Assembly (NCBI GenBank): GCA_035495795.1
Contig: DATJFF010000009.1
Span: 9,394 to 73,393 of the forward strand
Length of the DNA: 64,000 nt
Source: Vicinamibacterales bacterium
Lineage (GTDB): Bacteria; Acidobacteriota; Vicinamibacteria; Vicinamibacterales; UBA2999
Reading direction: 5' to 3'
Shown: positions 35,370-52,190 of the stretch, piece after piece
Layout: every line of letters begins with the position of its first letter
Position numbering within the stretch: position 1 is the stretch's first letter
Program-made: the position numbers and the translations under genes
Notes under the pieces: generated by a model
Databases searched by the model: none
Seen by the model: the letters and a program-made list of their open reading frames with translations, nothing else
What the model was told of the DNA's origin: nothing

Positions 35370-38300
35370 TCCGGCGAGATCGAACCATGTCGATGCAGAA
35401 GATCGGAAACGGCCGGAGTGCGCTCGGCCGGACGCTACTCGGGTTGGTTGTCATTGCTGCCTGCGGTGCCCTGCTCCGGGGCCAGGCGCAGGGGCGCGAG
35501 GTCCGGCTGGCCATCCGCGAGGGCACCTCGATGGCCGCCGCAGTGTCGCCGGACGGCAAGACCATCGTGCTCGATCTGCTCGGCGCCCTCTGGACGACGA
35601 GCGGGGACGGCGGCCCGGCGCGGCGAATCCTCGAGGACGGGTACGACGCGCATCTGCCGGCGTGGTCGCCGGACGGACGGCGGCTCGCGTTCCAGGCCTA
35701 CCTCCGCGACACGTGGCACATCTGGGTGATGAACCCTGACGGCAGCGGGCTGCAGGAGGTGACCACCGGTCCGTTCGACGATCGGGAGCCGTACTGGTCG
35801 CCGGACGGCACCCGCCTGGCGTTCTCCTCCGATCGCAGCGGCAACTACGACATCTGGACGTTGACGCTCGCCTCCGGCGAAGTGAAGCGCCTCACCAACA
35901 GCGGCGCCAACGACAGCATGCCGGCATGGTCGCCGGACGGCCGCGAGATCGCGTTCGTCTCCGATCGCCAGGAGCGGGGCATCTACGCCCGCACCGTGGA
36001 CTCGGACGCCGAGCGGCTGCTCGTCCGCGACGCGACCACTGTCTGGTCGCCGATGTGGACCCCTGACGGCAAGGCGGTGGCCTACGTGTCGGTCAGCGGC
36101 GCGACCAGCAAGCTGGTGATGGGCGGCACGACGATCAGCGACTCGGGAGAGGATGTGTTCCCGTTCCGGCCGACATGGGTCGGCGCGGACATGGTCTATA
36201 CCGCCGACGGCGTGATCAAACGCCGGCCGCAGAGCGGCGGTGCCGCTCGGCCGGTACCGTTTGCGGCCGACGTCGCATTCACTCGCGCGGCGTTCACGCC
36301 GAAGGCGCCGGTCTTCGCGCCGGACGGCCCGCAGAAGGTCCGCGGCCTGATGCATCCGGTCGTTTCACCGGATGGCGCGCGGGTGGCATTTGCCGCGCTC
36401 GGCGATCTCTGGGTGCTGTCCACCTCCGGCGGCGAGGCGACGCCCGAGCGCTTGACCAATGACGTCTTCGTCGAGATGCACCCGATGTGGTCGCCCGACG
36501 GCAACCTGCTCGCCTATTCGTCGGACCGCGGCGGTGAGATGGCCGTATGGGTGCGCGACATGCGGACCGGCCAGGATCGGAAGATCATCGGCGGTGGCGG
36601 CACCGCGTCGTTCTCGCCGGACGGAGGGCGCCTGGCGTACCTCGACTCCGCTTCGCAGCTCCGCGTCGTGGACGTCAAGACCCTCGAAGGACGAAAGGTG
36701 CACGAGCGGCTGATGGAGCCGGGCCGACCGAGCTGGTCGCCGGACGGGCGCGCGGTGGTGATGTCGGCGCTCCACCCGTACTCGACGCGCTTTCGAGAGG
36801 GCACCAACGAAGTGCTGTGGGTGCAGGTCGAGCCGAACCCGTCGGCGACCGGGCGGGACGCGTTCGCGCCGGACCGCTGGTTCGATCCGCTGCCGCACAA
36901 GTCGATCGGGATGCGCGAGAACCTCGGTCCGGTCTGGTCGCCGGATGGGACGCAAATGGCCGCGATCATCGACGGCTATCTCGCCACGTTCCCGGTCGCG
37001 CGCGATGGCACGCCGGCCGGCCCGCCCCGGCGCGTCTCGTCCGACATGGCGAGCTCGCCGTCATGGGCCGGCGACTCACGCCGCGTGCTCTACCAGGCGC
37101 TCGATCGGTTCCGGCTCGTCGATCTTGCCGACGGCAGCGTCCGCGACATCGTCCCGCGCATGACGTGGGAGGCGCGAAAGACAACCGGCGCCGTGACGGT
37201 GCACGCCGGCCGCCTGTTCGACGGGCGCGGCACCGAGACGCGCAGCGGCGTGGACATCGTCATCGATGGAAACCGGATCCGGCAGGTGGAGCCGCACCGC
37301 GACGATCTGCACCGCGGCACCGTGGTCGATGCGCAATCCGGAACGGTGGTGCCGGGGATTATCGAAAGCCACACCCACCTCTCGAAGGAGTACGGCCAGG
37401 TTCTCGGGCGGATCTGGCTGTCGTTCGGCATCACGACGGTGCGCAACCCGGCGACCAATCCGTTCGAAGCCAACGAGGAGCGGGAGTCGCTCGCCTCCGG
37501 CGTCAGGATCGGTCCGCGGGTCGTCACCACCGGCGAGCCGCTCGATGGCACGCGCATCTACTACCCGGGCGGCGTGGCGCTCGACGGCGGCGCGATGGTG
37601 GACAACTACATGAGCCGGGCCCAGGCCCTCGGCTTCGACTTCGTCAAGACCTACGTGCGCCTGCCCGACCTGCTCCAGAAGCGGATCATCGCCGCCGCCC
37701 ATCAGGCCGGGATGCCGGTCACCTCGCACGAGATTTATCCGGCGGTGGCCTATGGCGCCGACGGCGTCGAGCACATTCGTGGCACCAGCCGGCGCGGCTT
37801 CACGCCGAAGAACAGCGAGACCCGTCACACCTACCACGATGTGATCGATCTGCTCGCGGCAAGCGGCATGACGCTGACGCCGACGATCGGCATCCAGGGC
37901 GGGCACCAGCTGCTGACGCTCAAGGACGGCTCGTGGCTGGACGACGCGCGGATCAAGACGCTGTTTCCGGCGACGGCATCCGAGCCCTCGCGCGCGCTGC
38001 GTGCGAAGCCGTCGACGCCGGCCGACATCGCCGCGCGGGAAGCGCTGGTCGCGCCGCAGGAGCGGCTGGTCAGCGCGCTGCACAAGGCGGGCGGCCGGAT
38101 CATCGCCGGGACCGACTCGCCGATCAATCCGTACGGGTTGTCGCTGCTGCTCGAGATCGAGCACTACGTCCGCGGCGGGCTGACGCCGGCCGAGGCGCTG
38201 CTCACGGTGACCGCGGTCCCGGCGCAGGCGATGGGCCTCGGCGCGGAGCTCGGCACGATCGAGCCGGGCAAGCTCGCGGACCTCGTCGTCGTGGACGGGA

Positions 38301-38395
38301 ACCCGCTGGAGAACATCGCCGACATCCGCAAGACCCGGACGGTCGTGAAGGACGGCGTCGTGTATCAGCTCGACGCGTTGCTGAAGCGGCCTTAG
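35366..38395 (+). CDS. PD40/TolB-type beta-propeller fused to a metal-dependent amidohydrolase domain
   Basis: About 1000 aa. The listed start GTG 35366 overlaps the upstream stop (GTGA). ATG 35387 is an alternative. Signal peptide. Many PD40-like repeats (AWSPDGRRLAF, YWSPDGTRLAFSS, AWSPDGREIAFVS...). C-terminal amidohydrolase with PGIIESHTHL. Confidence 0.88.
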   Translation: MIRRDRTMSMQKIGNGRSALGRTLLGLVVIAACGALLRGQAQGREVRLAIREGTSMAAAVSPDGKTIVLDLLGALWTTSGDGGPARRILEDGYDAHLPAWSPDGRRLAFQAYLRDTWHIWVMNPDGSGLQEVTTGPFDDREPYWSPDGTRLAFSSDRSGNYDIWTLTLASGEVKRLTNSGANDSMPAWSPDGREIAFVSDRQERGIYARTVDSDAERLLVRDATTVWSPMWTPDGKAVAYVSVSGATSKLVMGGTTISDSGEDVFPFRPTWVGADMVYTADGVIKRRPQSGGAARPVPFAADVAFTRAAFTPKAPVFAPDGPQKVRGLMHPVVSPDGARVAFAALGDLWVLSTSGGEATPERLTNDVFVEMHPMWSPDGNLLAYSSDRGGEMAVWVRDMRTGQDRKIIGGGGTASFSPDGGRLAYLDSASQLRVVDVKTLEGRKVHERLMEPGRPSWSPDGRAVVMSALHPYSTRFREGTNEVLWVQVEPNPSATGRDAFAPDRWFDPLPHKSIGMRENLGPVWSPDGTQMAAIIDGYLATFPVARDGTPAGPPRRVSSDMASSPSWAGDSRRVLYQALDRFRLVDLADGSVRDIVPRMTWEARKTTGAVTVHAGRLFDGRGTETRSGVDIVIDGNRIRQVEPHRDDLHRGTVVDAQSGTVVPGIIESHTHLSKEYGQVLGRIWLSFGITTVRNPATNPFEANEERESLASGVRIGPRVVTTGEPLDGTRIYYPGGVALDGGAMVDNYMSRAQALGFDFVKTYVRLPDLLQKRIIAAAHQAGMPVTSHEIYPAVAYGADGVEHIRGTSRRGFTPKNSETRHTYHDVIDLLAASGMTLTPTIGIQGGHQLLTLKDGSWLDDARIKTLFPATASEPSRALRAKPSTPADIAAREALVAPQERLVSALHKAGGRIIAGTDSPINPYGLSLLLEIEHYVRGGLTPAEALLTVTAVPAQAMGLGAELGTIEPGKLADLVVVDGNPLENIADIRKTRTVVKDGVVYQLDALLKRP

Positions 38396-38679
38396 GCTTC
38401 GCTGGAGGGCCGTTTCCCGGGCCTCGCGGCTTCCGCCGCTCGGCAGGCGCCCGCTTCGCGGGCGTAGGCTGCGCTTCGCGCATCGGGCGCGGCTTCGCCG
38501 CGTTACACGCCTCGCGGAGTGCGCCGCTCGGTAGGCGCCCGCTTCGCGGGCGTAGGCTGCGCTTCGCGCATCGGGCGCGGCTTTGCCGCGTTACACGCCT
38601 CGCGGAGTGCGCCGCTCGGCAGGCGCCTGCTTCGCGGGCGTAGGCTGCGCTTCGCGCATCGGGCGCGGCTTCGCCGCGT
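38396..38679 (+). repeat. 88-bp tandem repeat, about 3.2 copies, built from GCTTCGC/GCGAAGC mini-palindromes (hairpin module of composite element, copy 1)
   Basis: GCCGCTCGG anchors at 38435, 38523 and 38611 give a period of exactly 88 bp. Each unit contains CGCCCGCTTCGCGGGCG, GCGCTTCGCGC and CGCGGCTTCGCCGCG. The array begins right after the TAG at 38393-38395. Confidence 0.92.
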
Positions 38680-38806
38680 AGGGATTGGTGATTGGAAATT
38701 GAGGATTGTCGAGGCGCCAGGAGCGGCAATCCCGAGGGCCGCGAGCCTCTCCCGATCGACGCAACGTCCTCCCGAAGCAGCGCAAGCGTCCTCCCGGCGC
38801 AGACGC
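38680..38806 (+). repeat. GATTGG module and phased CTCCCG module of composite element, copy 1
   Basis: GGGATTGGTGATTGGAAATTGAGGATTG, then CTCCCG boxes at 38749, 38769 and 38791 (20- and 22-bp spacing). The module abuts the stop of the convergent gene at 38810. Confidence 0.8.
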
Positions 38807-38809
38807 CGC

Positions 38810-40306
38810 TCACGGTACCGTCAACACGATTTCGGGGGAAACACCGCTGGTCGCGCAGCTTCCCGCCGCGGCGACACGCAGGAAGTAGAAACCCGGCGGT
38901 ACGCCTGCGAGGGGGAAGGAGATCCGTGGCTGCGCGCCGACATTTCCATTGAAAGCGTTGCTCAGGCCGGTCGCGGTTCCTGCCTGGAGCACGTACGACG
39001 CCGCGCCGAAGGAGCGGCTCCACGAGATCGTGAGCACGCCGTTGATCTTCGTGAACGTGAGATCGGCCGGCACCGCCGGTGCGGTGCATCCGACGGAGAA
39101 CGACACCTCGTTGGAAGCGGCTCCGATACCGCACGCGTTCACGCCGCGAATCCGGGTTACGTAGTTCCCGCCCGGCGCCGCGGCCGTCAACTGCATTCGC
39201 CCGCCGACGTTCTGGTTGAACAGGTTGGCAAGTCCGCTCGCGCTGCCCGCTTCGACGATGTAGGAGGTGGCGCCGGCCGTGCCGTCCCAGTCGAGCGTGG
39301 CGCTGAGACCGATCGAGCGTACGGTGTGGGCATTCGGCGCTGCCGGAGCCGCCGTGCAGCCAGGATTGCCCACCGCGAAGGTTCGCTCGATTGAAACCGG
39401 GCCGATTGCGGCGCCCTGGCGGCTTCGCAGGCGCACGTAGTAGATGCCAGCAGGCACCGGCGATTGCAGCGCAGTCGTGTTGCCGATGTCGGCATTGAAG
39501 ATGTTCGTCGCACCCGGGGTCGAGCCGGCCTCGAGCACGTAGGACGTCGCGTCGACGGACGCGTCCCACGTAACAGCGGCCGACAGGCCGGTCGTGACGA
39601 TCTGGAGGTTGGTCGGCGGCAGCGGTTTGCGGAGCACGAGCCGCACGTGGCCGGATGCCGCGGCGGCCCCGGCCTGATCCACGTCGCGATCAGAGGATTC
39701 GAGCTCGTAGTTGAACTCGTAGGTGCCCGGTGGCAGCACGCCGCGCCGGGTGCCGAGCTGGTTGAAGGATCCGTACACGCCATCGTTCGACAGGTTGACG
39801 TAGAGCCAGCGCGCCAACCCGAAGGCGGTCTCGTCCTCGAGATACGCCGTCGTGAAAGGCGAGAGGAACTGGCGGAGGAAGGTCCGCTGGTGATAGGCGT
39901 CGCCGGCATCGGTGCTCGAACCGAACAGGTGCCCGCTCAGCTCGTAGACGTACGGTTCATCGAGCGTGATCTGAATGAAGCCTTCCGCGAGGTTGCCGTT
40001 CGACCCGACGCTGTAACTCTGCTCGGTCTGTATGTCGAACACCGCGGTGGTGCCGGTCAGGCTGATCTCGTAGGTGGCGCTGGTTGTCGCCGTCGCCGCG
40101 GTGCCGATCTCGGTATCGGTAATGCTGTCGCCGAACGTACCCGGGCCGAATACCGGCACGATGTCGTGCGAATCGACGACGCCGAAGTGATTGTCGGCGC
40201 GAACCCGGATGAGCGACGTCGGAGCGATGACCGGCGGCCCCGCTTCCACCGCGGATGGCAGGCAAGCCAGGAACGCACCGAACGCGAGCACGCGAATCCG
40301 CTTCAT
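38810..40306 (-). CDS. Exported protein with unknown N-terminal domain and three FN3-like repeats
   Basis: 498 aa. Signal peptide AFLACLPSAVEA. Three ~85-aa repeats each contain ...SYVLEAGS/T..G..N.F... and ...YYVRLR / YVTRIRG / YFLRVAA.... Confidence 0.8.
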   Translation of the reverse strand: MKRIRVLAFGAFLACLPSAVEAGPPVIAPTSLIRVRADNHFGVVDSHDIVPVFGPGTFGDSITDTEIGTAATATTSATYEISLTGTTAVFDIQTEQSYSVGSNGNLAEGFIQITLDEPYVYELSGHLFGSSTDAGDAYHQRTFLRQFLSPFTTAYLEDETAFGLARWLYVNLSNDGVYGSFNQLGTRRGVLPPGTYEFNYELESSDRDVDQAGAAAASGHVRLVLRKPLPPTNLQIVTTGLSAAVTWDASVDATSYVLEAGSTPGATNIFNADIGNTTALQSPVPAGIYYVRLRSRQGAAIGPVSIERTFAVGNPGCTAAPAAPNAHTVRSIGLSATLDWDGTAGATSYIVEAGSASGLANLFNQNVGGRMQLTAAAPGGNYVTRIRGVNACGIGAASNEVSFSVGCTAPAVPADLTFTKINGVLTISWSRSFGAASYVLQAGTATGLSNAFNGNVGAQPRISFPLAGVPPGFYFLRVAAAGSCATSGVSPEIVLTVP

Positions 40307-40345
40307 CGACAGTCCTCCGTATTCAACGACCGGGACGGCATGCTA

Positions 40346-41407
40346 TCACCGGTTCCGGTGGCGGCTGGCAAACACAGCCAGGCTCGTCGCCACCGCGCGC
40401 CCGCCGGGCGTGTTATCGGACGTCGTGTTCACGAGTTCGGCATCTCCGGTTGCGGGATTCTGCCAGGCCATGGTGGTCGAGCCGCCGCCGTCCAGGTTGA
40501 GCGCATCCCAGACGCCGTACTCACGCACCAGCAACGCCGCGATCTCACCGAGCGTCATCCCCTGGCTGCCGCCGCGCACGTCCACGGTGAAGAAGGTCAC
40601 GATGCGCCGGTCCTTCGAGAGCCCGATCGCCGTCCGAGCCGTCGCGACGTCGTTCCACGACTTGTCGTTCGAGTAGTTCGACGGTCCCCCGGCGGTCAGC
40701 GTGCCGCGTGGGTGCTCCGCGTCGCGGTAGGCAGGCATCGTCACCGCACCGCTGGTCGCGATCTGCGACGATCCTGCGACGGTGTTCCAGAGCCGCACGC
40801 GCTCGCGAACGTGAATCGCATCGGGTTTCAACGGGTCGCGGTGCACGAGCCTGGCCCGCTGACTGCGATCGAAGTTGATCGCCGGCGCGTCGGCCACCAG
40901 CGCGAAGCTCTGCTCGGGTGACTCGAAGGCCGAGAAGACGCGCCCCTCCGATGCGCCGAGGCCGATGATCCACGCTTCGCTGTCGGGCGACGGAAACGGC
41001 AGGAAGAAGTGCGCGTTGATCGCGAGCTGCGCACCGACTGCACGCAGAAACTCCAGCGTCTGCTGCCGCGGCACCTCGCGGCTGCCGCCCGGCGCCGAGA
41101 CCATGAAGCGGATTCCCGGTGCCTTGGTATCGATCTGCGCGATGTGCATGCGAACCGGGCGAGGTCTCTGCTCCGATCGATCGACGAGCGTGATCCCGAC
41201 ATAGGGCGAAGGAGCGCTGGACTGGGCTCGCGACGGAATCTGTCCCGCGAGCAGCAGGGCGAGCACCGCCGCAATCGAGAGGACTCGGCAACGTCGAGAA
41301 CCGGCAATCACGCGCCGCAGAATACGCCACCGCGCGTTCGTGCTCCTGCCGGGGCTCGGCGCCACGGATACCATCGCCACACCCATTCGGCGGCGATTTG
41401 CGCTCAC
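40346..41407 (-). CDS. Phosphodiester glycosidase-family (DUF2233/NAGPA-like) exported protein
   Basis: 353 aa. Signal region ...IAAVLALLLAGQIPSRAQS. C-terminal hallmark ALNLDGGGSTTMAW. Confidence 0.75.
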   Translation of the reverse strand: MSANRRRMGVAMVSVAPSPGRSTNARWRILRRVIAGSRRCRVLSIAAVLALLLAGQIPSRAQSSAPSPYVGITLVDRSEQRPRPVRMHIAQIDTKAPGIRFMVSAPGGSREVPRQQTLEFLRAVGAQLAINAHFFLPFPSPDSEAWIIGLGASEGRVFSAFESPEQSFALVADAPAINFDRSQRARLVHRDPLKPDAIHVRERVRLWNTVAGSSQIATSGAVTMPAYRDAEHPRGTLTAGGPSNYSNDKSWNDVATARTAIGLSKDRRIVTFFTVDVRGGSQGMTLGEIAALLVREYGVWDALNLDGGGSTTMAWQNPATGDAELVNTTSDNTPGGRAVATSLAVFASRHRNR

Positions 41408-41432
41408 GCCCGGCGAGCGGTTCGCTTAGCCG

Positions 41433-42389
41433 TCACCCCCGTGACTCCAGCGGGAACAGTTTCTCGAAGTTGCCGCTGAAGATCTGCGTCTGCTGCGCGT
41501 CGGACACGCCCAGATCGACCAGCGCGGCGCGCTGCACGTTGTAGATGGCGCGGTGCCAGCCGCGCGGGAAGAACGAGGAGTCGCTGCCGAAGAGCAGCCG
41601 ATCGACGCCGGCGACGGCCAGCGCGGTCTCGAAGACCTGTTCGAGCGTCAACCCCGGCTGGTATTTCATCCACGCATTCGAGCTCGAGGTGTCGAAGCAG
41701 ACGTTCGGGCACTGGTCGGCCAGGATCAGCGCCTCTCGGAACAAACCGGCACCGAAGTGCGGAACCACGATCGGCATCCGCGCATGGCGCATCGCGATCG
41801 TCCCGACGTCGAGCGGGTTGCCGAAGCGGATGTCGAACGGACTTGGCAGCCCGAGCTTCTGCCGCGCGCCGACCGACAAGACGCCGCAATGCACGAAGAG
41901 GACGGCGCGGTGGTGAGCGGCGACGATCTCGGCGAGGTGCAACACGCGCGGGTCGTGCAGCGAATAGCCCTGCATCGCCGGGAACAGGCAGACGCCGCGG
42001 AGCCCGCGTTCGAGTGCCGACCGGACCCGGTTCTCGGCATCTTCGTTCGTCGGATCGACCATGAAATAGCCGATGAAGCGCGATGGATGCCGCTCCCGAG
42101 CCGTCGCCACCGAGGCTTCGTCGCCGGGCACGCTGGCGATGAGGGCGACGCGCGACACGCCCTGGGCGTCGAGCTCGGCGATCCACCGATCGGCGAGCGC
42201 CTCGGCGGACAAGGGGTCGTCCCACCCCAGGTGCCGGATCGCATCAGCCGTCGCCACGTGGCGCTGCCCCGCCAGGGTGGCGAAGAAGGCCGGCGAGAAG
42301 AAGTGGACGTGGGCGTCGCAGATCACCGCGCCATTGTAGGCGCTCGCTGCGTCCGCGTCGCGCCAGGCCGGGAGGGCGGCTCCCTGCAT
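41433..42389 (-). CDS. Amidohydrolase-2 family metal-dependent hydrolase
   Basis: 318 aa from ATG 42389 (GAGG 6 nt upstream). An alternative GTG at 42326 would give MICDAHVHFF..., with the HxH motif at the extreme N-terminus, as is usual for this family. Later motifs ...VLFVHCG... and ...FGSDSSFFP. Confidence 0.82.
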   Translation of the reverse strand: MQGAALPAWRDADAASAYNGAVICDAHVHFFSPAFFATLAGQRHVATADAIRHLGWDDPLSAEALADRWIAELDAQGVSRVALIASVPGDEASVATARERHPSRFIGYFMVDPTNEDAENRVRSALERGLRGVCLFPAMQGYSLHDPRVLHLAEIVAAHHRAVLFVHCGVLSVGARQKLGLPSPFDIRFGNPLDVGTIAMRHARMPIVVPHFGAGLFREALILADQCPNVCFDTSSSNAWMKYQPGLTLEQVFETALAVAGVDRLLFGSDSSFFPRGWHRAIYNVQRAALVDLGVSDAQQTQIFSGNFEKLFPLESRG

Positions 42390-42394
42390 TCTTG

Positions 42395-42598
42395 CCTCGC
42401 CTATCTCGGGAAGAGGCTGGCGCCCGATCGGGAGGGTCTTACGGCTTTCGGGAGCGTCCCGCCCTCAACCGTTCCGATCCATCACTCTTAGATCATCAGA
42501 TCCCTGCGCGGCTGCCTGTCCGCCGTAGCCTTTGGCGAAGGCGGAAAGCCGCGCCTGACGCGCGTAGCGCGGCCTGCGGTCGCGAAGCGACCGCCTAC
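42395..42598 (-). repeat. Composite element, copy 2 (inverted): CGGGAG boxes, weak GATTGG-like part, hairpin module
   Basis: Plus-strand CGGGAA/CGGGAG at 42407, 42429 and 42449. Segment 42502-42600 is the reverse complement of 44191-44289 with about 92% identity by hand alignment. Confidence 0.85.
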
Positions 42599-42741
42599 CG
42601 AGCGCGAAGCGCGACGCCCGCGAAGCGAGGCCTATCGAGCGCGCAGCGTGAGGCCCGCGAAGCGAGGCCTATCGAGCGCGTAGCGCGACGCCCGCGAAGC
42701 GAGGCCTATCGGGCGCGCAGCGCCCGCCCGGCAAAGCGGCC
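42599..42741 (-). repeat. 37-bp tandem repeat, 3 full copies plus a fourth diverged copy inside the MATE gene 3' end
   Basis: Units CGAGCGCG(A/C/T)AGCG(C/T)GA(C/G)GCCCGCGAAGCGAGGCCTAT at 42599, 42636 and 42673. The next unit, CGGGCGCGCAGCGCCCGCCCGGCAAAGCGGCC, encodes the last 11 codons (GRFAGRALRAR) of the MATE gene. Confidence 0.9.
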
Positions 42742-44100
42742 CCACACCGTCGTGAGCACGACGCCGGCGACGATGAGCCCGAGCGACAGTCCCCACCACA
42801 GTCCGCGCGCGCCCCAGCCGGCCGAAAAACACAGCCAGTAGCCCACCGGGAGTCCGACCAGCCAATGCGCGGCGAGATTCGTGACCATCGGGGTACGCGT
42901 GTCCCCGAGGCCGCGGAGGGTTCCCGTGACCACGCCTTGCAGCCCGTCGAAGAGCTGGAACACCGCCGCGATGAAGAGCAGCGACGCGCCGAGCTCGAGC
43001 ACCGCGGCGTCCCTGGTGAAGAGCCCGATCAGCGTCCGCGGGATCGCGATGAACGCCGCGCCAGAACAGAGCATGAACACGACGCCCATGGCGATGACCG
43101 TCCATCCCGCGGCCGCGGCGCCGCGCGGGTTCCTGGCACCGATCGCATTGCCGACCCGAACCGCCCCCGCGGAGGCAAGCCCCAGCGGGATCATGAACGC
43201 GACCGCCGCGATGTTGAGCGCGATCTGGTGCGAAGCGGTGGCCACCGGCTCGAGCTTTCCCGCCAGTGCTGTTGCGACCGCGAACACGCCGACTTCCGCA
43301 GTGACGGTGGCCGCTGCCGGCAGACCCAGCTCGACGAGTCGCCGTATCGACGGATCCGATCGATCGGCGGAGCTGAGGGCCATGACACTCCCGTGTCCCT
43401 CCCGTAATTCCCTCCCGACGTCCTGCGCCAAAGGCGCAGAAGCTCCCGACCCCGCGTCGTCCGACGTCCACCACACTGCGATGCCGAGAATCGCGCTCAT
43501 GTAGATCCGGGCCGCGAGCGTCGCCAGCGCCGACCCCGGGACACCCAGCGCCGGAATGCCAAGCCGGCCGTAGATGAACACCCAGTTGAAGAACGCGTTG
43601 ATCGCGTTGGCGCTCACCAGGGCGAACATCACCGGCGCCACGTGGTGCGTGCTCTGGAGGTAGCGTCGAAGCGCCGCGTAGAGCAGCAGGAAGGGAGTAC
43701 TCAGGACCAGGATGGCGAAGTAGCCGCGGAGCAGGACCAGCGTGTCGTGGTGGAAGCCGAGCGCCGGCACGGCCGCCCAGACCGCAGCCAGGACCAGCAG
43801 GAGAGGGATGGCGCTGATCAGGGCGAGCTGGATGCCGCGCCGGAGCCATGACCGGCAGAGCCGCAGGTCGCCGGCGCCATACGCTTGCGACACGAGCGTG
43901 TCGAGGCCGAGCAGCAGGCCCATGCCGAAGATGACGAAGCCGAGGTGCAGCGAATTGGCGACGCCGGACGCGGCAATGGCCGCCGGGCCGAGCGGGCCCA
44001 CCATGATGGTGTCCACGATGCCCATGCCCATCCAGCCGAGCTCCGCCAGTATCACGGGGCCCGCCAGCCGCAGCGTTGGTTTGAGCTCTCGGCGCAGCAC
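42706..44100 (-). CDS. MATE-family efflux transporter
   Basis: 464 aa with 12 predicted TM helices. Family-typical N-terminus ...RLAGPVILAELGWMGMGIVDTIMVGPLG. Confidence 0.9.
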   Translation of the reverse strand: MLRRELKPTLRLAGPVILAELGWMGMGIVDTIMVGPLGPAAIAASGVANSLHLGFVIFGMGLLLGLDTLVSQAYGAGDLRLCRSWLRRGIQLALISAIPLLLVLAAVWAAVPALGFHHDTLVLLRGYFAILVLSTPFLLLYAALRRYLQSTHHVAPVMFALVSANAINAFFNWVFIYGRLGIPALGVPGSALATLAARIYMSAILGIAVWWTSDDAGSGASAPLAQDVGRELREGHGSVMALSSADRSDPSIRRLVELGLPAAATVTAEVGVFAVATALAGKLEPVATASHQIALNIAAVAFMIPLGLASAGAVRVGNAIGARNPRGAAAAGWTVIAMGVVFMLCSGAAFIAIPRTLIGLFTRDAAVLELGASLLFIAAVFQLFDGLQGVVTGTLRGLGDTRTPMVTNLAAHWLVGLPVGYWLCFSAGWGARGLWWGLSLGLIVAGVVLTTVWGRFAGRALRAR

Positions 44101-44111
44101 TGAACTGTCAA

Positions 44112-44446
44112 TGGTACTCGCGCTTCGCGGGCCTCGCCGCTACGCCGCTCGGGAGGCGCCCGCTTTCGCGGGCCTCGCGGCTACGCGGCTCGGGAGGCGC
44201 CCGCTTCGCGGGCGTAGGCCGCGCTCCGCGCGTCAGGCGCGGCTTTCCGCCTTCGCCAAAGGCTACGGCGGACAGGCAGCCGCGTAGGGGCGGACGATTG
44301 CGGATTCGCGATTGGGATTTGGCGATTGGGATCGGGCGAGTGAGGGACTGAGGGACGGACACTCCCGCTCGGCGAAGCCGCTCCCGATCAGGCGCCAGCC
44401 GCCTCCCGAGAGACGCGAGACAAGAATGTAGCGAGCGCCGCTCCCG
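44112..44446 (+). repeat. Composite element, copy 3: hairpin module, GATTGG module, phased CTCCCG boxes
   Basis: Two ~42-bp units (CGCTTCGCGGGCCTCGC(C/G)GCTACGC(C/G)GCTCGGGAGGCGCC), then the 88-bp-type unit. GATTGCGGATTCGCGATTGGGATTTGGCGATTGGGATCGGG follows. CTCCCG boxes at 44362, 44381, 44403 and 44441. Confidence 0.85.
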
Positions 44447-44490
44447 GACAAGGTGTTGGGGGAATACCGGATTGGTGATTCACTATCCCT

Positions 44491-45039
44491 ATGTGCGGTG
44501 ATGTCGCGGCGGGAGGCAAGGCGCGGCTGACGTGTACCGTCAACGGGGAGCCGGTCGAGGTCCTCGTCGACGGCTACAAGACCTTGCTCGAGATGCTGCG
44601 CGAGGACCTGCAGCTCACCGGCACCAAGCACGGGTGTGAGCTGGGCGAGTGCGGTGCCTGTGCGGTGCTCGTCGACGGCGAGCCGGTGCTGTCGTGCCTG
44701 ACGCTGGCCGTGGAGTGCGATACGCGCCAGGTCACCACCGTCGAGGGGCTTGCCAGCGGCGGCGCACTGCATCCGCTGCAGGAGACGTTTGCCGATCTCG
44801 GGGCCGCGCAGTGCGGCTATTGCACGCCAGGGATCCTGGTCACGGCCAAGGCGCTCCTCGATCGCAATTCGAACCCGACCCGCGCGGAGATCAAGGAGGC
44901 GCTTGCCGGCAACCTGTGCCGATGCACGGGATACCTGCAGATTGTTGAAGCGGTGGAAAAGGCGAGTGCGATGAGGGGCGCTACGACTACGGGTGCGACA
45001 GGTGTGTCGGGTGCGACGGGTGCGGAGGAACTGGCGTGA
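44491..45039 (+). CDS. (2Fe-2S)-binding small subunit, CoxS/HcrC-like
   Basis: 182 aa. Motifs CELGECGACAV and CGYCTPG...CRCTGY. The C-terminal tail GATTTGATGVSGATGAEE is encoded by a 9-bp repeat (44989-45024). Confidence 0.9.
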   Translation: MCGDVAAGGKARLTCTVNGEPVEVLVDGYKTLLEMLREDLQLTGTKHGCELGECGACAVLVDGEPVLSCLTLAVECDTRQVTTVEGLASGGALHPLQETFADLGAAQCGYCTPGILVTAKALLDRNSNPTRAEIKEALAGNLCRCTGYLQIVEAVEKASAMRGATTTGATGVSGATGAEELA

Positions 45040-47504: not shown

Positions 47505-48571
47505 TGCGACTGCCGACGTTCCGGTATCGCGCGCCGCGCACCCTGGCGGAAGCGTCGGCGTGGCTGGCCGAATCTCCCGACGACACGATGCTCGTCGCGG
47601 GCGGGACCGACGTGCTGCCGAACATGAAGCGCCGGCAGCAAGTGCCGGGAACGCTGATCGCGCTTCGCTCGCTGGGCGAGCTCAGCGCGATCGCAACGGG
47701 TGAGGCTGGCGCCAGTTCGGGACGACACGCCTCGCTTCGCTCGGCGGCAGGGGGGACAGTCATTGGCGCAGGCGTGACTCTTGCCACCCTGGTGCGTGAC
47801 GAACACATTCGAACGACGATCCCCGGGCTGTGTCAGGCGGCCATCCAGGTGGCGACGCCGCACTTGCGCAACATGGGGACGCTTGGCGGCAATCTCTGCC
47901 TCGACACGCGCTGCACGTATTACGACCAGACTTACGAGTGGCGGAAAGCAATCGACTTCTGCCTCAAGAAGGACGGGACAATCTGCTGGGTGGCGACGTC
48001 GAGCCCGCGATGCCTGGCGGTGTCGTCCACCGATACCGCGCCGATGCTGCAGGCGCTCGGCGCACGTGTGCGGCTCGTCTCGGCGCAGGGCGCGCGCGAA
48101 TTGTCAGTGGCGGATCTCTACCAGAACGATGGCATGCACTACCTCGCTCGCCGTCGCGACGAGATCCTGGCCGACGTGACCGTGCCGGATCAGACCGGGT
48201 GGCGCAGCACCTACTGGAAGTTGCGCCGGCGCGGCTCGTTCGACTTCCCGGTTGCCGCCGTGGCCGCGGCGGCGCGCCTGGACGCGGGCGGACTGGTCGA
48301 AGAGGTTCGCCTCGTCGCGGGCGCCGTGGCTTCGCGCCCGCTCGGCGCGCCGAAGGCCGAGGCGCTCCTGCTCGGCCAGTCCCTGACCGACGAGCGCATT
48401 GCCGCTGCCGCGCACGCGGTGTACGACATCGCCAAGCCGATGGACAACACCGACTTCGAGCTCGTCTGGCGCAAGCGGATGATCACCACCCTCGCCACCT
48501 GCGCGTTGCGGGAGATCCGCGGTGACGACATGCGTGCGGCGAGACAACGTCTCGCGCGCCAGCTTGTCTAA
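47501..48571 (+). CDS. FAD-binding medium subunit, CoxM/HcrB-like, with a Cys-rich insertion
   Basis: The ORF track starts at 47375. ATG 47501 overlaps the large-subunit TGA (ATGA). 356 aa. FAD motif LVAGGTDVLPNMK and GTLGGNL. About 40 aa are inserted, with Cys codons at 47897, 47912, 47960, 47984 and 48011. Confidence 0.88.
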   Translation: MMRLPTFRYRAPRTLAEASAWLAESPDDTMLVAGGTDVLPNMKRRQQVPGTLIALRSLGELSAIATGEAGASSGRHASLRSAAGGTVIGAGVTLATLVRDEHIRTTIPGLCQAAIQVATPHLRNMGTLGGNLCLDTRCTYYDQTYEWRKAIDFCLKKDGTICWVATSSPRCLAVSSTDTAPMLQALGARVRLVSAQGARELSVADLYQNDGMHYLARRRDEILADVTVPDQTGWRSTYWKLRRRGSFDFPVAAVAAAARLDAGGLVEEVRLVAGAVASRPLGAPKAEALLLGQSLTDERIAAAAHAVYDIAKPMDNTDFELVWRKRMITTLATCALREIRGDDMRAARQRLARQLV

Positions 48572-48718
48572 AGGAAACCACGAAGGCACGAAGGACACGA
48601 AGGAAACCACGAAGCTATTCTTGGGAAGCACGCGGGATCCAAGTCACGACACACGCGTGACACCCCCAAGAATCTTCGTGTCTTCCTTCGCGCTCTTCGT
48701 GCCTTCGTGGTTTCTTTT
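48570..48718. repeat. 149-bp composite palindrome whose arms are tandem CACGAAGG-type decamers (probable bidirectional terminator)
   Basis: The left arm 48570-48625 and the reverse complement of the right arm 48665-48718 align at about 85% identity. The 39-nt centre contains a sub-palindrome GTCACG...CGTGAC (48643-48661). The arms touch the stop codons of both convergent genes. Confidence 0.85.
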
Positions 48719-50729
48719 ACTTCGCCGGGAGGCGGTACGCGACCAGCTCCCCCGAGTAGGTGCCGCCGCTGATGGCCACGACGAGATACTGACGGCCGTT
48801 CAGCATGTAGGTCATCGGCGAGCCAGTCTGGGGCGCGGGCATGTACACGGCGCCGACCTCCTGGCCGGTCGCCTTGTCGTAGGCGCGCAGCATTGCGCCG
48901 CGGACGCCGGAGGGCGTCGGTCCGAAGCTGCCCTCGCCGGCTATCACCAGCGTCTTCGTGACCAGCGTTCCGACGCTGCCGGTTCGCCCGGTGCGCGGGA
49001 TCTGCAGGCCCTTGAGCGCGGGGTGGTTGCGAATCACGTCCGGCGTCTCGCCGTGCGGGACCTGCCAGAGGAACTCTCCCCGTTTGAGATCGATGGCGGA
49101 GATTTGCCCGTACGGCGGCTTGATCAGCGGCAGTCCCTGGACCGTGAGGGTCGTGACCGCACTGCCGCCGTCGCTGCCTGCCGATCCGGAACCGCCGCTC
49201 CGCCGCACGCCAGTGGCCACGGTGCCCTGGTGATAACGAAAGTCCGTGATCTCGGGCGGTGGGGGCATCAGGCCCAGCGCGCTGACTTGTGCCTGTGACG
49301 AGACGTACAGCACCTGGGTTTCGGGATCGTACGAACCGCCCTGCCAGTTCGTGGCGGCGCCCTGGGCGGCCAGCGTGAGGGTCGCGATCGGCCCCTCGGC
49401 GCGGCTCACCGACGGCGGCGTGAACATCGGGCCGATGCGGTAGTGGGCGATCAGCCGTTCGGCCTCGCCACGCAGCTCCGGCGTGAAGTCGATCAGGAAG
49501 TCCTTCGAAAAACCCTGCCGCTCGTAAGCCGGGGGCTTCGTCGGAAACGGCTGCGTCGGCGAGTACCACTCGCCGGGTGTGTCGCCGCCCGGCGCCGGCC
49601 TCTCCTCGATCGGCCAGACCGGTTCGCCCGTCTCGCGGTTGAACACGTACACGAAGCCCTGTTTGGTGAGCTGGGCCAGCGCCTTGATCGGCCGGCCGTT
49701 GACGACGATGTCGGCGAGGATCGGCGCGCACGGAATGTCCATGTCCCAGATCCCGTGGTGCACGAGCTGGTAGTGCCATTTCCGCCGGCCAGTCCGGATG
49801 TCCACTGCGACAATGCTCTCGGCGAAGAGGTTCGCGCCGGGGCGGTGCCCGCCGTAGTAGTCGCCGGTCGGAAGCTCCACCGGCAGGTACGCAAGTCCGA
49901 GCGATTCATCGGCCGAGATCTGCGCCCAGACGCCGGTGTTGCCGGAATAGGCGTTCGAGCCGTCGAGCCACGTGTCGGCGCCGAACTCGCTCGGCCGCGG
50001 AATGGTGTGAAAGGTCCACAGCCGCTTGCCGGTGCGCACGTCGTAGCCGCGGACGTACCCCTTCACGTTGGTCTTGCTCTTGGGGTTCGCGCCGGTCTGG
50101 AACGCGGCGCCAACGATGATCACGTCGCGCGTGACGAGCGGAGTGGCGTGCAGGCCTACCGCGCCGCTCAGGGGATCGACGTCCTGATCGAAATCGCGCA
50201 TCAGATCGACCTGTCCGTCCAGGCCGAATCCGCCGAGCCGCGCGCCGGTCTGCGCGTCGAGCGCAACCAGGCGATAGCCCGGCGTGACGTAGTAGATGCG
50301 CGCGTCTCGACCGTCGGTCCAGTACGACAAGCCGCGCCCCGAGAACTGCCGCGGCGCGACGCTGCCGCGCTCGCCTTCGTCGAGGCTGTGCACCCACTTC
50401 AGCTCGCCGGTTGCAGCATTGAGCGCCACCACCGCCCGGCGCGTCCCGGCGGTGGAGTAGAGCATGCCATTCACCATCAGCGGCGTGGACTGGAAGACGT
50501 ACTCGGGCCGCGGTCCCAGGTTGTCGGTCTTGAAGCGCCACGCGACTTCGAGCCGGCCGAAGTTCGAGGCGTCGATTTCAGACAGGGGCGCGTAGCGCGT
50601 GTGGCCGAGATCGCCTCCGTACGATCGCCACTCCTGGCCGCTCGTGCCCGATTGAGCGCGCGGCGCGGCGGTGAGCGCCACTGCCGTCAGCGCGATCGCA
50701 ACGATTCGGGACAGTGGTAGACGCTTCAC
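48717..50729 (-). CDS. PQQ-dependent dehydrogenase (quinoprotein, glucose/sorbosone dehydrogenase-like beta-propeller), exported
   Basis: 670 aa. Signal peptide. N-terminal WRSYGGDLGHTRYAPL...VAWRF...STPLMVNGMLY and repeated W-motif propeller blades. Confidence 0.85.
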   Translation of the reverse strand: MKRLPLSRIVAIALTAVALTAAPRAQSGTSGQEWRSYGGDLGHTRYAPLSEIDASNFGRLEVAWRFKTDNLGPRPEYVFQSTPLMVNGMLYSTAGTRRAVVALNAATGELKWVHSLDEGERGSVAPRQFSGRGLSYWTDGRDARIYYVTPGYRLVALDAQTGARLGGFGLDGQVDLMRDFDQDVDPLSGAVGLHATPLVTRDVIIVGAAFQTGANPKSKTNVKGYVRGYDVRTGKRLWTFHTIPRPSEFGADTWLDGSNAYSGNTGVWAQISADESLGLAYLPVELPTGDYYGGHRPGANLFAESIVAVDIRTGRRKWHYQLVHHGIWDMDIPCAPILADIVVNGRPIKALAQLTKQGFVYVFNRETGEPVWPIEERPAPGGDTPGEWYSPTQPFPTKPPAYERQGFSKDFLIDFTPELRGEAERLIAHYRIGPMFTPPSVSRAEGPIATLTLAAQGAATNWQGGSYDPETQVLYVSSQAQVSALGLMPPPPEITDFRYHQGTVATGVRRSGGSGSAGSDGGSAVTTLTVQGLPLIKPPYGQISAIDLKRGEFLWQVPHGETPDVIRNHPALKGLQIPRTGRTGSVGTLVTKTLVIAGEGSFGPTPSGVRGAMLRAYDKATGQEVGAVYMPAPQTGSPMTYMLNGRQYLVVAISGGTYSGELVAYRLPAK

Positions 50730-50829: not shown

Positions 50830-50943
50830 ACGCCCCGGTTGCTGACCACACGGGGCGTCGATCGAACCAGAGCGAAAAGAACCTGCGGAAGACAGCGACT
50901 GCGGGCCGGAAGGACCGCGTTCGGGACTGCTCAGTCCCGCCCG

Positions 50944-51022
50944 TGGTCCCCTCCCGATCAGCGAAGTCCCTCCCGGCCAGCGAGGCCCCTCCCGATTTGC
51001 GAAGCCAACCTCCCGGCTGGCG
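50944..51022 (+). repeat. Phased CTCCCG-box module (fourth occurrence)
   Basis: CTCCCG at 50951, 50970, 50989 and 51010 (spacings 19, 19, 21), each followed by a ..GCGAAG-like segment. It abuts the stop of gene 51027-52190. Confidence 0.8.
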
Positions 51023-51026
51023 CGCG

Positions 51027-52190
51027 TCAGCGTGAAGTGCGGGCGCGAACGTTGAGCGTCACGTTGAACTCCCCGCGGTTATCGGGAAGGTGGTCGTCGT
51101 TCACGCCAAGGTAGATCCTGCCGCTCACCGGCGCTGTCACCGTCGTGCGGTTGCCGATGAAGATCGGCGGGTACTCGTCGATCTTCGCAATCAGACCCCC
51201 GGCGAGCTGTCCCTGGATGGGCGCATCCGGCGCGGTCCGGCCGCGTCGCGATCCGGCCGGCGTCGCCGTGTCTCCGGCATCGTCGCTCATCTGGATTTCG
51301 CCCGAGGCGTTGATGGTGACGACCTCGCCGGCGCGGACGGTGACGCCGGTGTCGGTCCAGCGCTGCTGGGCGTTGACGCGGACCTGCTGCGGCCCATAGG
51401 ACTGCTCACCGCTCGTGCCCGTCACGCCAGCGGCCGAGAACTCACGTCGCGAGATCACGCCGTTCCGGTCGGCGTCGATCTCGGCAAAGCTCGGTCGCGA
51501 CCAGTGCCACTCGTTGCGCTCGAGGCTTCCGTTCCGGTTGTAGTCGAGGGTCTGGAACTCGTCGTAGTTCTCGAAACTGGGCTGCTGCCCGACTACTTCG
51601 TAGCGGCTCAACACCCCGTCGTTGTTGCGATCGAGCCAGCGGAAGTCGTCGAGGCTGCCATGCCATTCGTTGCGCGTCACCCGGCCGTCGTTGTTGGAGT
51701 CCAGGTCGTCAAATCGGTCGTCGCGATCATCGTCTCGATTCGCGCCCAGGAACTCGCCGACCGAGATCGCGTTGTCGCGATTGCGGTCGATCCGGCGGAA
51801 CGTCTCGAGATCGAAGTGCCACTCGTTAGCGGTCAGGCGGCCGTCGCGATTGTGATCGAGATCGTGAAACCCCTGCTCGGTCCAGCTGATCTCCCCCTCG
51901 TAACGGTTGGGCGGATGATCCGCCGTTCCGTAGTCGGTGGTGCGCTGGCCGCCAATGCGCAGTTCGTCGCCGCTCAGCACGCCATCGCCGTTCCAGTCGT
52001 GGTTGACGAAGGACTGGTTGGAGCCCGTCCACTCGTCGCGGGTAATACGACCGTCGTGGTTGGTGTCCATCGCTTCGAAGCGCATGCGCGAGGACTGTTG
52101 CCCTTCTGCGGAGGCAATCGGCCCTGCGGCCATGCCCACGGTCAGCAGAGTGGCGATCGAGCACGTCAGCACCAAAGGACGAGCACGCAT
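51027..52190 (-). CDS. Exported protein with eight EF-hand Ca2+-binding loops and a C-terminal PA-IL/LecA-like lectin-type domain
   Basis: The ORF track extends to 52241. ATG 52190 is preceded by GGGAGGAA. 387 aa. Loops DTNHDGRITRDE, DWNGDGVLSGDE, DHNRDGRLTANE, DRNRDNAISVGE, DSNNDGRVTRNE, DRNNDGVLSRYE, DYNRNGSLERNE and DADRNGVISRRE. The C-terminal ~110 aa (...VTVRAGEVVTINASGEIQMS...GRIYLGVNDDHLPDNRGEFNVTL) look lectin-like. Confidence 0.85.
   Translation of the reverse strand: MRARPLVLTCSIATLLTVGMAAGPIASAEGQQSSRMRFEAMDTNHDGRITRDEWTGSNQSFVNHDWNGDGVLSGDELRIGGQRTTDYGTADHPPNRYEGEISWTEQGFHDLDHNRDGRLTANEWHFDLETFRRIDRNRDNAISVGEFLGANRDDDRDDRFDDLDSNNDGRVTRNEWHGSLDDFRWLDRNNDGVLSRYEVVGQQPSFENYDEFQTLDYNRNGSLERNEWHWSRPSFAEIDADRNGVISRREFSAAGVTGTSGEQSYGPQQVRVNAQQRWTDTGVTVRAGEVVTINASGEIQMSDDAGDTATPAGSRRGRTAPDAPIQGQLAGGLIAKIDEYPPIFIGNRTTVTAPVSGRIYLGVNDDHLPDNRGEFNVTLNVRARTSR

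Follow-up and report, generated by a model that had tools for sequence, protein, structure and literature searches.

In the window (the whole stretch of 64,000 nucleotides that was analysed), the gene of a MATE (NorM-like) efflux transporter is flanked by two of three paralogous intergenic hairpin blocks, which were designated E1, E2 and E3. With moderate confidence, these blocks are considered to be lineage-specific and to lie around a MATE gene that was already resident, with the inverted arms of E1 and E2 kept alike by gene conversion and with the stem-loops acting as REP/BIME-like RNA hairpins, and not as a switch or a vehicle for the gene. The repeated element is a locally duplicated block with REP/BIME-like behaviour. 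A pump gene between inverted repeats invites the reading of mobile resistance cargo or of a phase-variable switch, and this tempting misreading is removed here: the MATE pump has long been resident, and it is the repeats that arrived later.

Composite blocks on both sides of the MATE gene

The inverted repeat was located by a repeat search of the window at 42502-42603 and 44188-44289, with a length of 102 nt, 8 mismatches (92% complementary) and a spacing of 1584 nt. The earlier note had placed it at 42502-42600 and 44191-44289, with about 8 mismatches in about 100 nt and a long identical run; the repeat is real, the mismatch count holds and the run extends over 58 nt, while the inner ends of the arms had been set 3 nt short. 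The mismatches between the arms are at arm positions 7, 13, 14, 24, 25, 28, 39 and 98. Exact matches to the 37-nt core of the arm numbered 2 in the window and none across 100 dinucleotide shuffles. An additional, outer inverted repeat was found at 42368-42440 and 44375-44447 (82%). That the arms are parts of larger composite elements on both sides of the gene, as had been proposed, was borne out by the alignment with indels of approximately 42340-42760 (minus strand) with 44090-44500 (plus strand). The two arms are the best-conserved portions of the paralogous blocks E1 and E2 and form the core of these composites of 330-370 nt (Table 1).

Table 1. Coordinates of the blocks, of their parts and of the adjacent genes in the window
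Feature	Coordinates	Strand	Description and basis
E1 composite block	42368..42740	-	MATE stop to amidohydrolase start; alignment with E2, blastn-short self-matches
E1 tandem array	42581..42738	-	37-nt units, 4.2 copies; TRF and repeat search
Left arm	42502..42603	-	Stem-loops HP1 42576-42594, HP2 42559-42571, HP3 42506-42554; covariance model R1 86.8 bits
E1 inner hairpin, 34 nt	42512..42545	-	Nested in the HP3 loop
E1 distal part	42368..42501	-	GAT-rich stretch, then TCCCG spaced 20, 22, 38 nt
E2 composite block	44121..44450	+	MATE start to Fer2 gene start; inverted relative to E1
E2 tandem array	44121..44213	+	41-nt units, 2.3 copies; TRF and repeat search
Right arm	44188..44289	+	Stem-loops HP1 44197-44215, HP2 44220-44232, HP3 44237-44285; covariance model R1 80.3 bits
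E2 inner hairpin, 34 nt	44246..44279	+	Identical to the E1 inner hairpin
E2 distal part	44290..44450	+	GATTGG repeats, then TCCCG spaced 19, 22, 38 nt
E3 third paralogous block	38421..38805	+	88-nt units x2.9 (38421-38679), then GATTGG repeats and TCCCG motifs
Partial fourth copy	50941..51030	+	TCCCG array only, spacing 19, 19, 21
MATE (NorM-like) efflux transporter gene, 464 aa	42706..44100	-	Pfam MatE 4.7e-53, TIGR00797 3.7e-74
Amidohydro_2 gene	41433..42389	-	Conserved downstream partner of MATE; domain search and synteny
2Fe-2S subunit (XdhC/CoxS-like) of molybdopterin oxidoreductase operon	44491..45039	+	Divergent from MATE

The blocks consist of stem-loops rich in GC and arranged in tandem, with TTC loops, 5-8 bp in the stem and units of 37, 41 or 88 nt; these are followed by a GATTGG-rich stretch and then by TCCCG motifs at spacings of 19-22 nt. 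The hairpin end lies next to MATE or next to the stop codon of the upstream gene, and E1 and E3 start at, or just past, a stop codon. The E1 unit contains a GC stem with a bulge, closed by a TTC loop, and the translation places the MATE stop codon TAG (42706-42708) inside the first unit. The distal part of E1 takes in one arm of the outer repeat together with the amidohydrolase ATG at 42389, and the distal part of E2 takes in the other outer arm, with an ATG-TAG start-stop. E3 is located between two convergent genes, 4 kb from E1 and E2. A CRISPR-like array was considered and rejected, the units being contiguous and without spacers. An in-frame repeat insertion in the TM6-TM7 loop of MATE (43350-43460) was also set aside; the motif resemblance there may be incidental, because the loop length varies across the whole family.

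All three copies are within 6 kb, and no further copy was detected with the covariance model R1 in the remaining 58 kb of the window. A pattern scan of metagenomes recovered 5 contigs only, all orthologous to E1, E2 or E3, with each site recovered 2-3 times. The genome scan with a 20-base HP1 pattern yielded 57 single matches; these lay mostly within coding sequence or belonged to an unrelated repeat of Gaiellaceae and were of no use for building the family. No representative genome had multiple copies by the genome pattern scan; the genome-wide copy number was derived from these pattern scans, of which the patterns were strict. No plasmid or phage matches to the blocks were obtained by BLAST. 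Rfam gave 0 matches at gathering thresholds over the whole window, and an E-value search of 38300-44600 gave one chance-level match (E = 1), outside the blocks; no tRNA or tmRNA was detected by the scan. Judged from these sequences, the block appears to be confined to a narrow Vicinamibacterales lineage, and no earlier description of such repeats in this uncultured soil Acidobacteria lineage was found. Clusters of 'stop codon + AGGCG + hairpin' that resemble the blocks occur in other Acidobacteriota.

Synteny of the MATE gene and variation of the blocks among strains

The identification of the gene between the arms as a MATE transporter was upheld by the domain searches (Table 1). Among 8000 scored candidates, 7720 were MATE homologues with E<=1e-30, and the exact-protein look-up returned no record identical to the protein of the window. 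The order Fer2(-)/MATE(+)/Amidohydro_2(+) is kept in L001, L004 and L067-L070. In the relatives that are without the blocks or have short remnants of them, namely L001 (protein 93%), L068/L069 (81%) and L004 and L070 (77%), the place and orientation of MATE are unchanged. The called MATE and amidohydrolase genes are separated by 33 nt in L001 and by 40 nt in L004, with a 4-nt overlap in L068/L069, in which the two genes appear to be translationally coupled; one homologue (P0114) is a MATE-amidohydrolase fusion. L001 has ~110-nt remnants of both blocks, against 362 and 400 nt in the window. Since MATE is syntenic in these relatives, the repeats arose around a MATE-amidohydrolase pair that was already resident.

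Block length among the strains is 278-474 nt for E1 and 247-362 nt for E2. In L064, of which the MATE gene is 100% identical to that of the window, there are 5 extra 37-nt units in E1 (3 in the window), and E2 is shorter by one 41-nt unit. In E3, two units were counted in L003 and three in the window. Turnover of the blocks is very rapid: the number of units changes, and entire hairpins are gained or lost. Short reads are poorly suited to assembling short tandem units; the counts of units may therefore be unreliable, and the differences in unit number between strains could partly be assembly errors. This difficulty would also favour an artefact in the form of a chimeric or mis-joined repeat, which is nevertheless scarcely credible: an equal architecture is present in independent assemblies of several metagenomes (L003, L062, L064, L065, L067 and JGI 3300045391), and by this recurrence an artefact origin of the inverted repeat itself was ruled out.

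The 34-nt inner hairpin of E1 is present in the window, L064, L003 and L062 and absent in L065, and that of E2 is present only in the window and L064 and absent in L003 and L065. Accordingly, neither arm of L065 has the hairpin, L003 has it in E1 alone, and the window and L064 have identical copies of it in the two arms. HP1-HP2 of E2 is nearer to E3 (91.5%), yet HP3 of E2 is identical to HP3 of E1. The distal part of E1 is E2-like in the window, L003 and L064, and L062 retains an L001-like amidohydrolase N-terminus. Such mosaic tracts in E1 and E2, including the identical 58 nt, are hard to explain without copying between the arms, and gene conversion from one inverted arm to the other is the best explanation of the mosaicism. 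Of the recombination between the arms that the earlier note had envisaged, the exchange is supported, as non-reciprocal copying, and the inversion is not.

Base pairing and RNA sense of the hairpins

HP1 has a stem of 8 bp with a 3-nt loop, and the stems of HP2 and HP3 have 5 bp and 7-8 bp, respectively. The compensatory hairpin that had been pointed out between the arms, GGTCGC-TTC-GCGACC (42578-42592, minus strand) against GCCCGC-TTC-GCGGGC (44199-44213), was confirmed, with HP1 positions 13/25 and 14/24 as two adjacent compensatory pairs in the 8-bp stem. The differences between the arms are structure-compatible in 8/8 cases (P ~0.01 by simulation), and the stem substitutions preserve base pairing. 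The covariation survived the addition of more copies: in the alignment of 13 distinct copies, with 30 pairs and 95.6% of cells paired, 4 pairs were changed on both sides (two in HP1 and one each in HP2 and HP3). The covariation score was reached by 0 of 500 shuffles, and the slid controls were 19-56% paired. The covariation represents ~3-4 independent events among closely related paralogues, and template switching in palindromes could yield the same result without selection on RNA (PMC8794818).

G-U wobbles are almost confined to the element-sense strand, and E2, which has no broken pair when read in the sense direction, has 2 in the antisense direction. Whole-block RNA folds were not more stable than shuffles of the 67-70% GC background (z = -0.09, -2.25 and -0.48), and the z values of the single arms reached only -2.6 for E1 and -0.7 for E2. 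No U-tract was found after the hairpins, and HP1-HP3 are without a terminator-like site; across 38200-44700, 4 terminator-like sites were counted (2.7 expected by chance), none of them in the hairpin arrays. Because no U-tract follows them, the hairpins do not qualify as classical intrinsic terminators. E2 does not follow any plus-strand gene, and its RNA sense would fit only if the Fer2 operon has a long leader. The strand bias hints at a role of the hairpins at the RNA level, which is conjectured from the sequence.

Readings of the blocks and comparison with known systems

According to the preferred reading, non-reciprocal homologous recombination (gene conversion) would keep the arms similar, and the stem-loops would act as hairpins in the element-sense RNA, possibly as REP/BIME-like 3'-end, stabiliser or insulator structures by which the transcription of MATE may be isolated from its neighbours. 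The inverted geometry would be a by-product, with the hairpin ends facing MATE and the TCCCG ends facing the outward-directed genes, and the blocks would neither switch the pump gene nor carry it. The locus documents the evolution of intergenic hairpin repeats in an uncultured soil lineage of Acidobacteria, in which a composite block was duplicated locally, its units changed very rapidly in number, inverted copies probably underwent gene conversion and substitutions preserved the stems. It also brings a conserved 20-nt periodic TCCCG array to notice; specialists in bacterial repeats would not be greatly surprised by any of these observations.

The hairpin model does not account for that array. 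A duplicated regulatory region is a possible, though rather unlikely, alternative: the blocks would be copies of the divergent Fer2-MATE control region, and TCCCG and GATTGG would be putative regulator sites or promoter elements for the outward operons. In E1 as in E2, the start of the outward gene is adjoined, in the same orientation, by the TCCCG end. All copies, and those of the diverged species L067 as well, keep the TCCCG spacing of 19-22 or 38 nt, and the short ancestral spacers between Fer2 and MATE in L068 and L001 already contain CCAATC/GATTGG and CGGGAG motifs. The aligned parts are ~75% identical between the window and L067, for which the MATE third codon positions are 66%, and RNAalifold on the distal part gave no convincing conserved structure (-9.2 kcal/mol, covariation term unfavourable). 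However, E3 and the partial copy at 50.9 kb are not upstream of a co-oriented gene, no sigma-70-like promoter was found by the promoter consensus scan, close relatives live without the blocks and the binding protein is hypothetical. Under this regulatory reading, the amidohydrolase operon would be controlled independently of MATE through E1. A long-range RNA stem, in which co-transcribed arms would pair as a ~100-bp dsRNA duplex around the MATE ORF, be maintained by gene conversion and serve as an RNase III-type processing or stability element, is very unlikely, and it depends on an assumed start of the MATE mRNA upstream of 44289. The predicted arm-arm duplex has -219.5 kcal/mol, against -109 for both local hairpin sets, in the MFE fold of the 2081-nt sense RNA the 3' arm is the partner of 72 of the 102 positions in the 5' arm, and gene conversion would keep the arms alike; but local hairpins fold first in transcription, and the compensatory changes keep the local hairpins and reduce the arm-to-arm complementarity, which is not consistently maintained, since the arms of L003 differ by the 34-nt hairpin and those of L067 are far more diverged. 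If such a stem were formed, RNase III-type cleavage would control the expression of the pump and its separation from the amidohydrolase operon.

The idea of a recombination cassette or switch, by which the arms would invert or excise the MATE segment or would mark MATE as imported cargo, had been raised in the earlier note and is now highly improbable. The 58-nt identical tract is sufficient for RecA-dependent exchange and there are clear signs of sequence exchange between the arms; however, a single orientation was found in every contig with both arms (the window, L003, L064, L065, L067 and JGI 3300045391), MATE is absent from none of them and the window yielded no recombinase or transposase domain. 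The delivery of MATE as a cassette between element copies is contradicted by its same place, orientation and neighbours in relatives without blocks or with short remnants, and by its coupling to the amidohydrolase in L068/L069; the conserved gene order and the constant orientation thus leave both the cassette and the inversion unsupported. The statement that no transposase is present, with the locus not called mobile, stands: Pfam scans of the 39 likely coding ORFs across the window found no transposase, integrase or recombinase domain, and the ends of the blocks are without terminal inverted repeats or target-site duplications. A MITE or composite transposon was rejected on the same grounds, the boundaries against L001 being ragged with shared remnants. 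The spread of a mobile REP/REPIN- or MITE-type family by a RAYT or other transposase encoded elsewhere, with the three copies as a sample, is unlikely. The units are short palindromes, some after GTAG (CTCGGTAGGCG...), and are clustered, in tandem and mostly downstream of ORFs, like GTAG REPs (PMC3733652); the blocks are missing or reduced in close relatives, and comparable post-stop hairpin clusters exist in other Acidobacteriota. Against such a family, 0 copies are in the other 58 kb, no additional site came from the metagenome scan, no representative genome had multiple matches, the tag is variable (GTAG, GCAG, GGAG, ATAG) and the block ends lack the marks of transposition named above.

GTAG REPs/BIMEs of Proteobacteria are imperfect palindromes, short and GC-rich, whose stems have 5-13 bp and whose loops have 2-20 nt; they lie mostly just downstream of ORFs, are clustered and reiterated in tandem with flanking DNA, vary in copy number between strains and are thought to form RNA hairpins (PMC3733652). 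The palindromes of the blocks are likewise short, imperfect and outside genes, with E1 and E3 at or past stop codons, and their clusters are tandem, with units of 37, 41 and 88 nt in strain-variable number. The blocks differ in their occupancy of three neighbouring sites, as far as the strict scan patterns detect, whereas REPs have tens to thousands of dispersed copies. REPs carry a conserved, unpaired GTAG (or CGTC) tetranucleotide at one end. In the blocks, the 5' flank is GTAG in E1 and in one E3 unit and GCAG, GGAG or ATAG elsewhere, and the 3' CGTAGGC of the unit overlaps the stem. No RAYT (IS200/IS605-like Y1 transposase) was found within the window, and the hairpins belong to a 300-nt composite in which GATTGG and TCCCG modules recur periodically. 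Template switching in quasipalindromes changes several adjacent bases in one step and restores perfect pairing of the DNA hairpin (PMC8794818; PMC7202029), and the change of both adjacent HP1 pairs from GT..AC to CC..GG is consistent with it; template switching is, however, a mutational mechanism and not an element, and it leaves the G-U excess of the sense strand unexplained.

Invertons also have inverted repeats around a segment, but here the segment is a whole 1.4-kb resident gene in a single orientation, with no recombinase. MITEs and composite transposons share a repeated non-coding element on both flanks of a gene and no transposase inside, and differ in that the present blocks have no terminal inverted repeats or target-site duplications, surround a gene older than the repeats and occur in one neighbourhood. 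Processing stems bracket the 16S and 23S rRNAs as the proposed arm duplex would bracket the MATE ORF. Inverted duplicates in concerted evolution by gene conversion are represented by tufA/tufB in Salmonella and by the plastid inverted repeats. The MATE-flanking blocks differ from such duplicates in being non-coding and 300 nt long, with high identity over ~100 nt only and conversion tracts of tens of nt, and resemble them in having inverted copies a few kb or less apart, identical tracts, strain mosaics and an intervening segment that is not inverted.

Anatomy of the inverted repeat

The inverted repeat claimed around the MATE gene in the earlier note was confirmed by a repeat search of the window, with arms of 102 nt (42502-42603 and 44188-44289) that are 92% complementary and 1584 nt apart. 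A 37-nt core has two exact matches in the window and none in 100 dinucleotide-preserving shuffles, a run of 58 nt is identical in both arms, and the eight differences between the arms lie at positions 7, 13, 14, 24, 25, 28, 39 and 98. The arms were rightly regarded there as part of larger composite elements, of which they are merely the best-conserved portion: 42340-42760 (minus strand) can be aligned, with indels, to 44090-44500 (plus strand), and an outer, second inverted repeat (82%) is formed by 42368-42440 and 44375-44447. The inverted repeat consists of two paralogous intergenic repeat blocks, E1 and E2, around a resident gene, and E3 is a third copy.

Coordinates of the repeat blocks and the neighbouring genes in the window
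Feature	Position	Strand	Tandem units of part A
Tricorn-like gene, before E3	ends 38395	plus	
E3, third copy	38421-38805	plus	88 nt x2.9
fn3, NAGPA and Amidohydro_2 genes, between E3 and E1	38810-42389	minus	
E1	42368-42740	minus	37 nt x4.2
MATE transporter, between the arms	42706-44100	minus	
E2	44121-44450	plus	41 nt x2.3
Fer2/molybdopterin oxidoreductase operon, after E2	starts 44491	plus	

Each block, read in its own sense, contains three parts. Part A is composed of GC-rich stem-loops with TTC loops, tandemly reiterated in units that terminate in the triple hairpin HP1-HP2-HP3 (the reported arm), part B is enriched in GATTGG or GATC, and part C carries TCCCG motifs at a spacing of 19-22 nt or of 38 nt. 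In both E1 and E2 the hairpins face MATE, and the TCCCG motifs adjoin the beginning of the gene that points outward. The first repeat unit of E1 includes the MATE stop codon, and the amidohydrolase ATG (42389) is contained in the outer inverted repeat. The latter (window 42389 and 44425-44430; about 2181 in strain L003) carries GAGGCAAGAATG, the ATG of which opens the amidohydrolase ORF in the E1 of the window, whereas the same position is an ATG-TAG start-stop in E2 and in the E1 of L003, and thus the annotated amidohydrolase N-terminus differs among strains. The TM6-TM7 loop of MATE (43350-43460) differs strongly between homologues, both in length and in sequence, and its plus strand contains CCTCCCG-like motifs and a GCGCCAAAGGCGC hairpin resembling parts of the repeat blocks, a resemblance that could be incidental.

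Base pairing within the arms

The hairpin pair with compensatory changes noticed earlier was correct: GGTCGC-TTC-GCGACC (42578-42592, minus strand) and GCCCGC-TTC-GCGGGC (44199-44213) differ at two neighbouring, compensatory base pairs of an 8-bp stem. All eight arm differences leave the 30 pairs intact (P ~0.01 by simulation of eight random substitutions). Among 13 distinct copies, which are close paralogues, standard pairs occupied 95.6% of the cells, and four of the 30 pairs had both partners changed (HP1 columns 16/28 and 17/27, HP2 38/50 and HP3 60/98). The observed covariation score and number of doubly changed cells were matched by 0 of 500 shuffles and the number of doubly changed pairs by 21 of 500, and pairing fell to 19-56% when the 3' partners were slid. 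On this larger set the covariation holds within limits, as about 3-4 events from close paralogues, and quasipalindrome replication template switching alters two neighbouring pairs in a single step in just this way, without RNA selection (PMC8794818). G-U wobbles were located almost exclusively on the element-sense strand, a bias that may point to RNA of the element sense, and the broken pairs of E2 numbered zero on the sense strand and two on the antisense strand. The stability of whole-block folds was not above that of shuffled sequence.

Residence of the MATE gene and variation of the blocks

The named MATE homologues belong to Vicinamibacterales (Acidobacteriota), and, judged from their sequence contexts, the arrangement Fer2(-) / MATE(+) Amidohydro_2(+) is old. 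In L001 (a 4.6-Mb contig, MATE protein 93%), the called MATE and amidohydrolase genes are separated by a 33-nt gap, and remnants of about 110 nt stand in place of the 362 and 400 nt of the window. In L068/L069 (81%), the two genes overlap by 4 nt and the Fer2-MATE spacer is 45 nt; a TetR gene lies beside MATE in L004 and L070 (77%), and the homologue P0114 (62%) is a MATE-amidohydrolase fusion protein. The pump gene is accordingly resident, with the repeats having grown around it, and the earlier suggestion of a delivered cassette is not supported. Inversion or excision of the segment, also envisaged in the earlier note, was not supported and an inverton was rejected, since MATE was inverted or missing in none of the contigs examined. 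Diverged E1 and E2 are both present in L067 (92% identical in MATE protein and only 66% at third codon positions), which indicates that the blocks predate the species and have shrunk in L001.

Block lengths (nt) in the window and in related strains
Block	L062	L003	Window	L064	L065
E1	278	291	400	474	incomplete
E2	not on contig	247	362	321	262

The blocks are highly variable, with mosaic tracts common to the copies and stems kept paired. Length differences among closely related strains are mostly whole 37- or 41-nt units, although unit-number differences are possibly exaggerated by short-read assembly; E3 has two units in L003 and three in the window. The MATE gene of L064 is 100% identical to that of the window, yet the unit numbers differ (two more 37-nt units in E1, one 41-nt unit fewer in E2); either units are gained and lost faster than point substitutions accrue, or short-read assembly cannot be relied upon in this region. 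A 34-nt hairpin lying within the HP3 loop is more robust evidence, since its length is below that of a sequencing read; it is found in neither arm of L065, only in E1 of L003, identically in both arms of the window and L064, and in a diverged version in E1 of L067. E2 is mosaic: its HP1-HP2 is closer to E3 (91.5%), and it shares an identical HP3 with E1. The window, L003 and L064 have a distal E1 that matches E2, and L062 keeps in this part an L001-like amidohydrolase N-terminus. Repeated, probably bidirectional gene conversion between the inverted copies is the best explanation of the mosaics, with the arms recombining non-reciprocally.

Gene-content differences coincide with repeats at two sites. 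An intergenic stretch of 280 nt (50741-51030), with AAGGCAA x8 (50775-50830) and a TCCCG array of 19-21-nt spacing (50941-51030), takes the exact place of a complete GSDH gene of L001 (1787-3157), so repeats mark a gene presence/absence difference; E3 (38421-38809) occupies the place of an extra 448-aa fn3-like gene of L001 (14947-16293). A long imperfect palindrome between convergent genes (48569-48719; 66-nt arms, 77%, 19-nt spacer), with CACGAAGG-type repeats and 89% conserved in L001, has the appearance of another 3'-end hairpin family. One intergenic region contains two tandem arrays of opposite orientation (21433-21567 and 21661-21765), with 15-16-nt units GGGTTCAAAGCACGAC and TTGAACCTCCGTGAT.

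Distribution and comparison with known repeats

Short-word BLAST and R1, a covariance model trained on the 13 copies, detected E1, E2 and E3 but no further copies in the other 58 kb of the window; 50941-51030 is a partial copy, limited to part C. A 29-base pattern with stem positions left free, run against 241 million metagenome records, recovered five contigs, all orthologous to E1/E2 or E3 (each site 2-3 times), and no other site. A looser 20-base pattern gave 57 single matches in 185,579 representative genomes, most of them belonging to coding sequence or to a Gaiellaceae repeat that is unrelated, and no multi-copy genome. Many MAG contigs of Gaiellaceae and other Actinomycetes (L005, L007, L009, L016, L018, L025, L034-L036, L038, L041, L052, L053 and L058) carry a longer conserved repeat, ...GATCCGC-N-GCGCGGATC...CGCGAAGATCCCTGA-AGGCGTCCGCTTCGCGGCCGCAGGC, in several copies per MAG, which appears to be a separate dispersed REP-like family unrelated to the window. 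R1 also found, at two loci of other Acidobacteriota, L011 (7439-7556) and L039 (1424-1491), clusters of stop codon, AGGCG, hairpin (6-bp stem, TTC loop) and TAGGC (E ~3e-4 to 6e-4), those of L011 forming an adjacent inverted pair; a post-stop hairpin style may thus be common across the phylum.

The absence of a transposase, stated earlier, was borne out by a domain scan of 39 likely coding ORFs from the window, which also revealed no integrase or RAYT domains, and no plasmid or phage matches were obtained. A MITE was rejected because neither terminal inverted repeats nor target-site duplications occur at the ends of the blocks, an intrinsic terminator because no U-tract follows the hairpins, and an Rfam family because there were no matches.

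In the most likely reading, the hairpin arrays would act in RNA as REP/BIME-like 3'-end, stabiliser or insulator structures, uncoupling MATE both from its ancestral partner, the amidohydrolase operon, and from the Fer2 operon that diverges from it, and the inverted geometry would be a by-product. The main complementary rival is that the TCCCG/GATTGG part may be a duplicated regulatory region: this part is conserved, periodic and unexplained by hairpins, and RNAalifold gave no good structure in it. Were the MATE mRNA to include both arms, these would form a stem of about 100 bp (predicted -219.5 kcal/mol for the arm-arm duplex versus -109 kcal/mol for local hairpins; 72 of 102 positions paired arm to arm in the full-length MFE fold), a reading considered very improbable.

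The blocks represent a variant of a known bacterial intergenic repeat type in an uncultured Vicinamibacterales lineage. REP/BIME are defined by dispersed high copy number, a conserved GTAG tag and a cognate RAYT, and dispersed high copy number is not seen for the blocks of the window in the data at hand. The flanking tetranucleotide is GTAG in E1 and in one unit of E3, and GCAG, GGAG or ATAG in other units. The element behaves like REP/BIME clusters (PMC3733652), a likeness rather than an established membership: its palindromes are short, extragenic and located downstream of ORFs, and they form tandem clusters that vary between strains.
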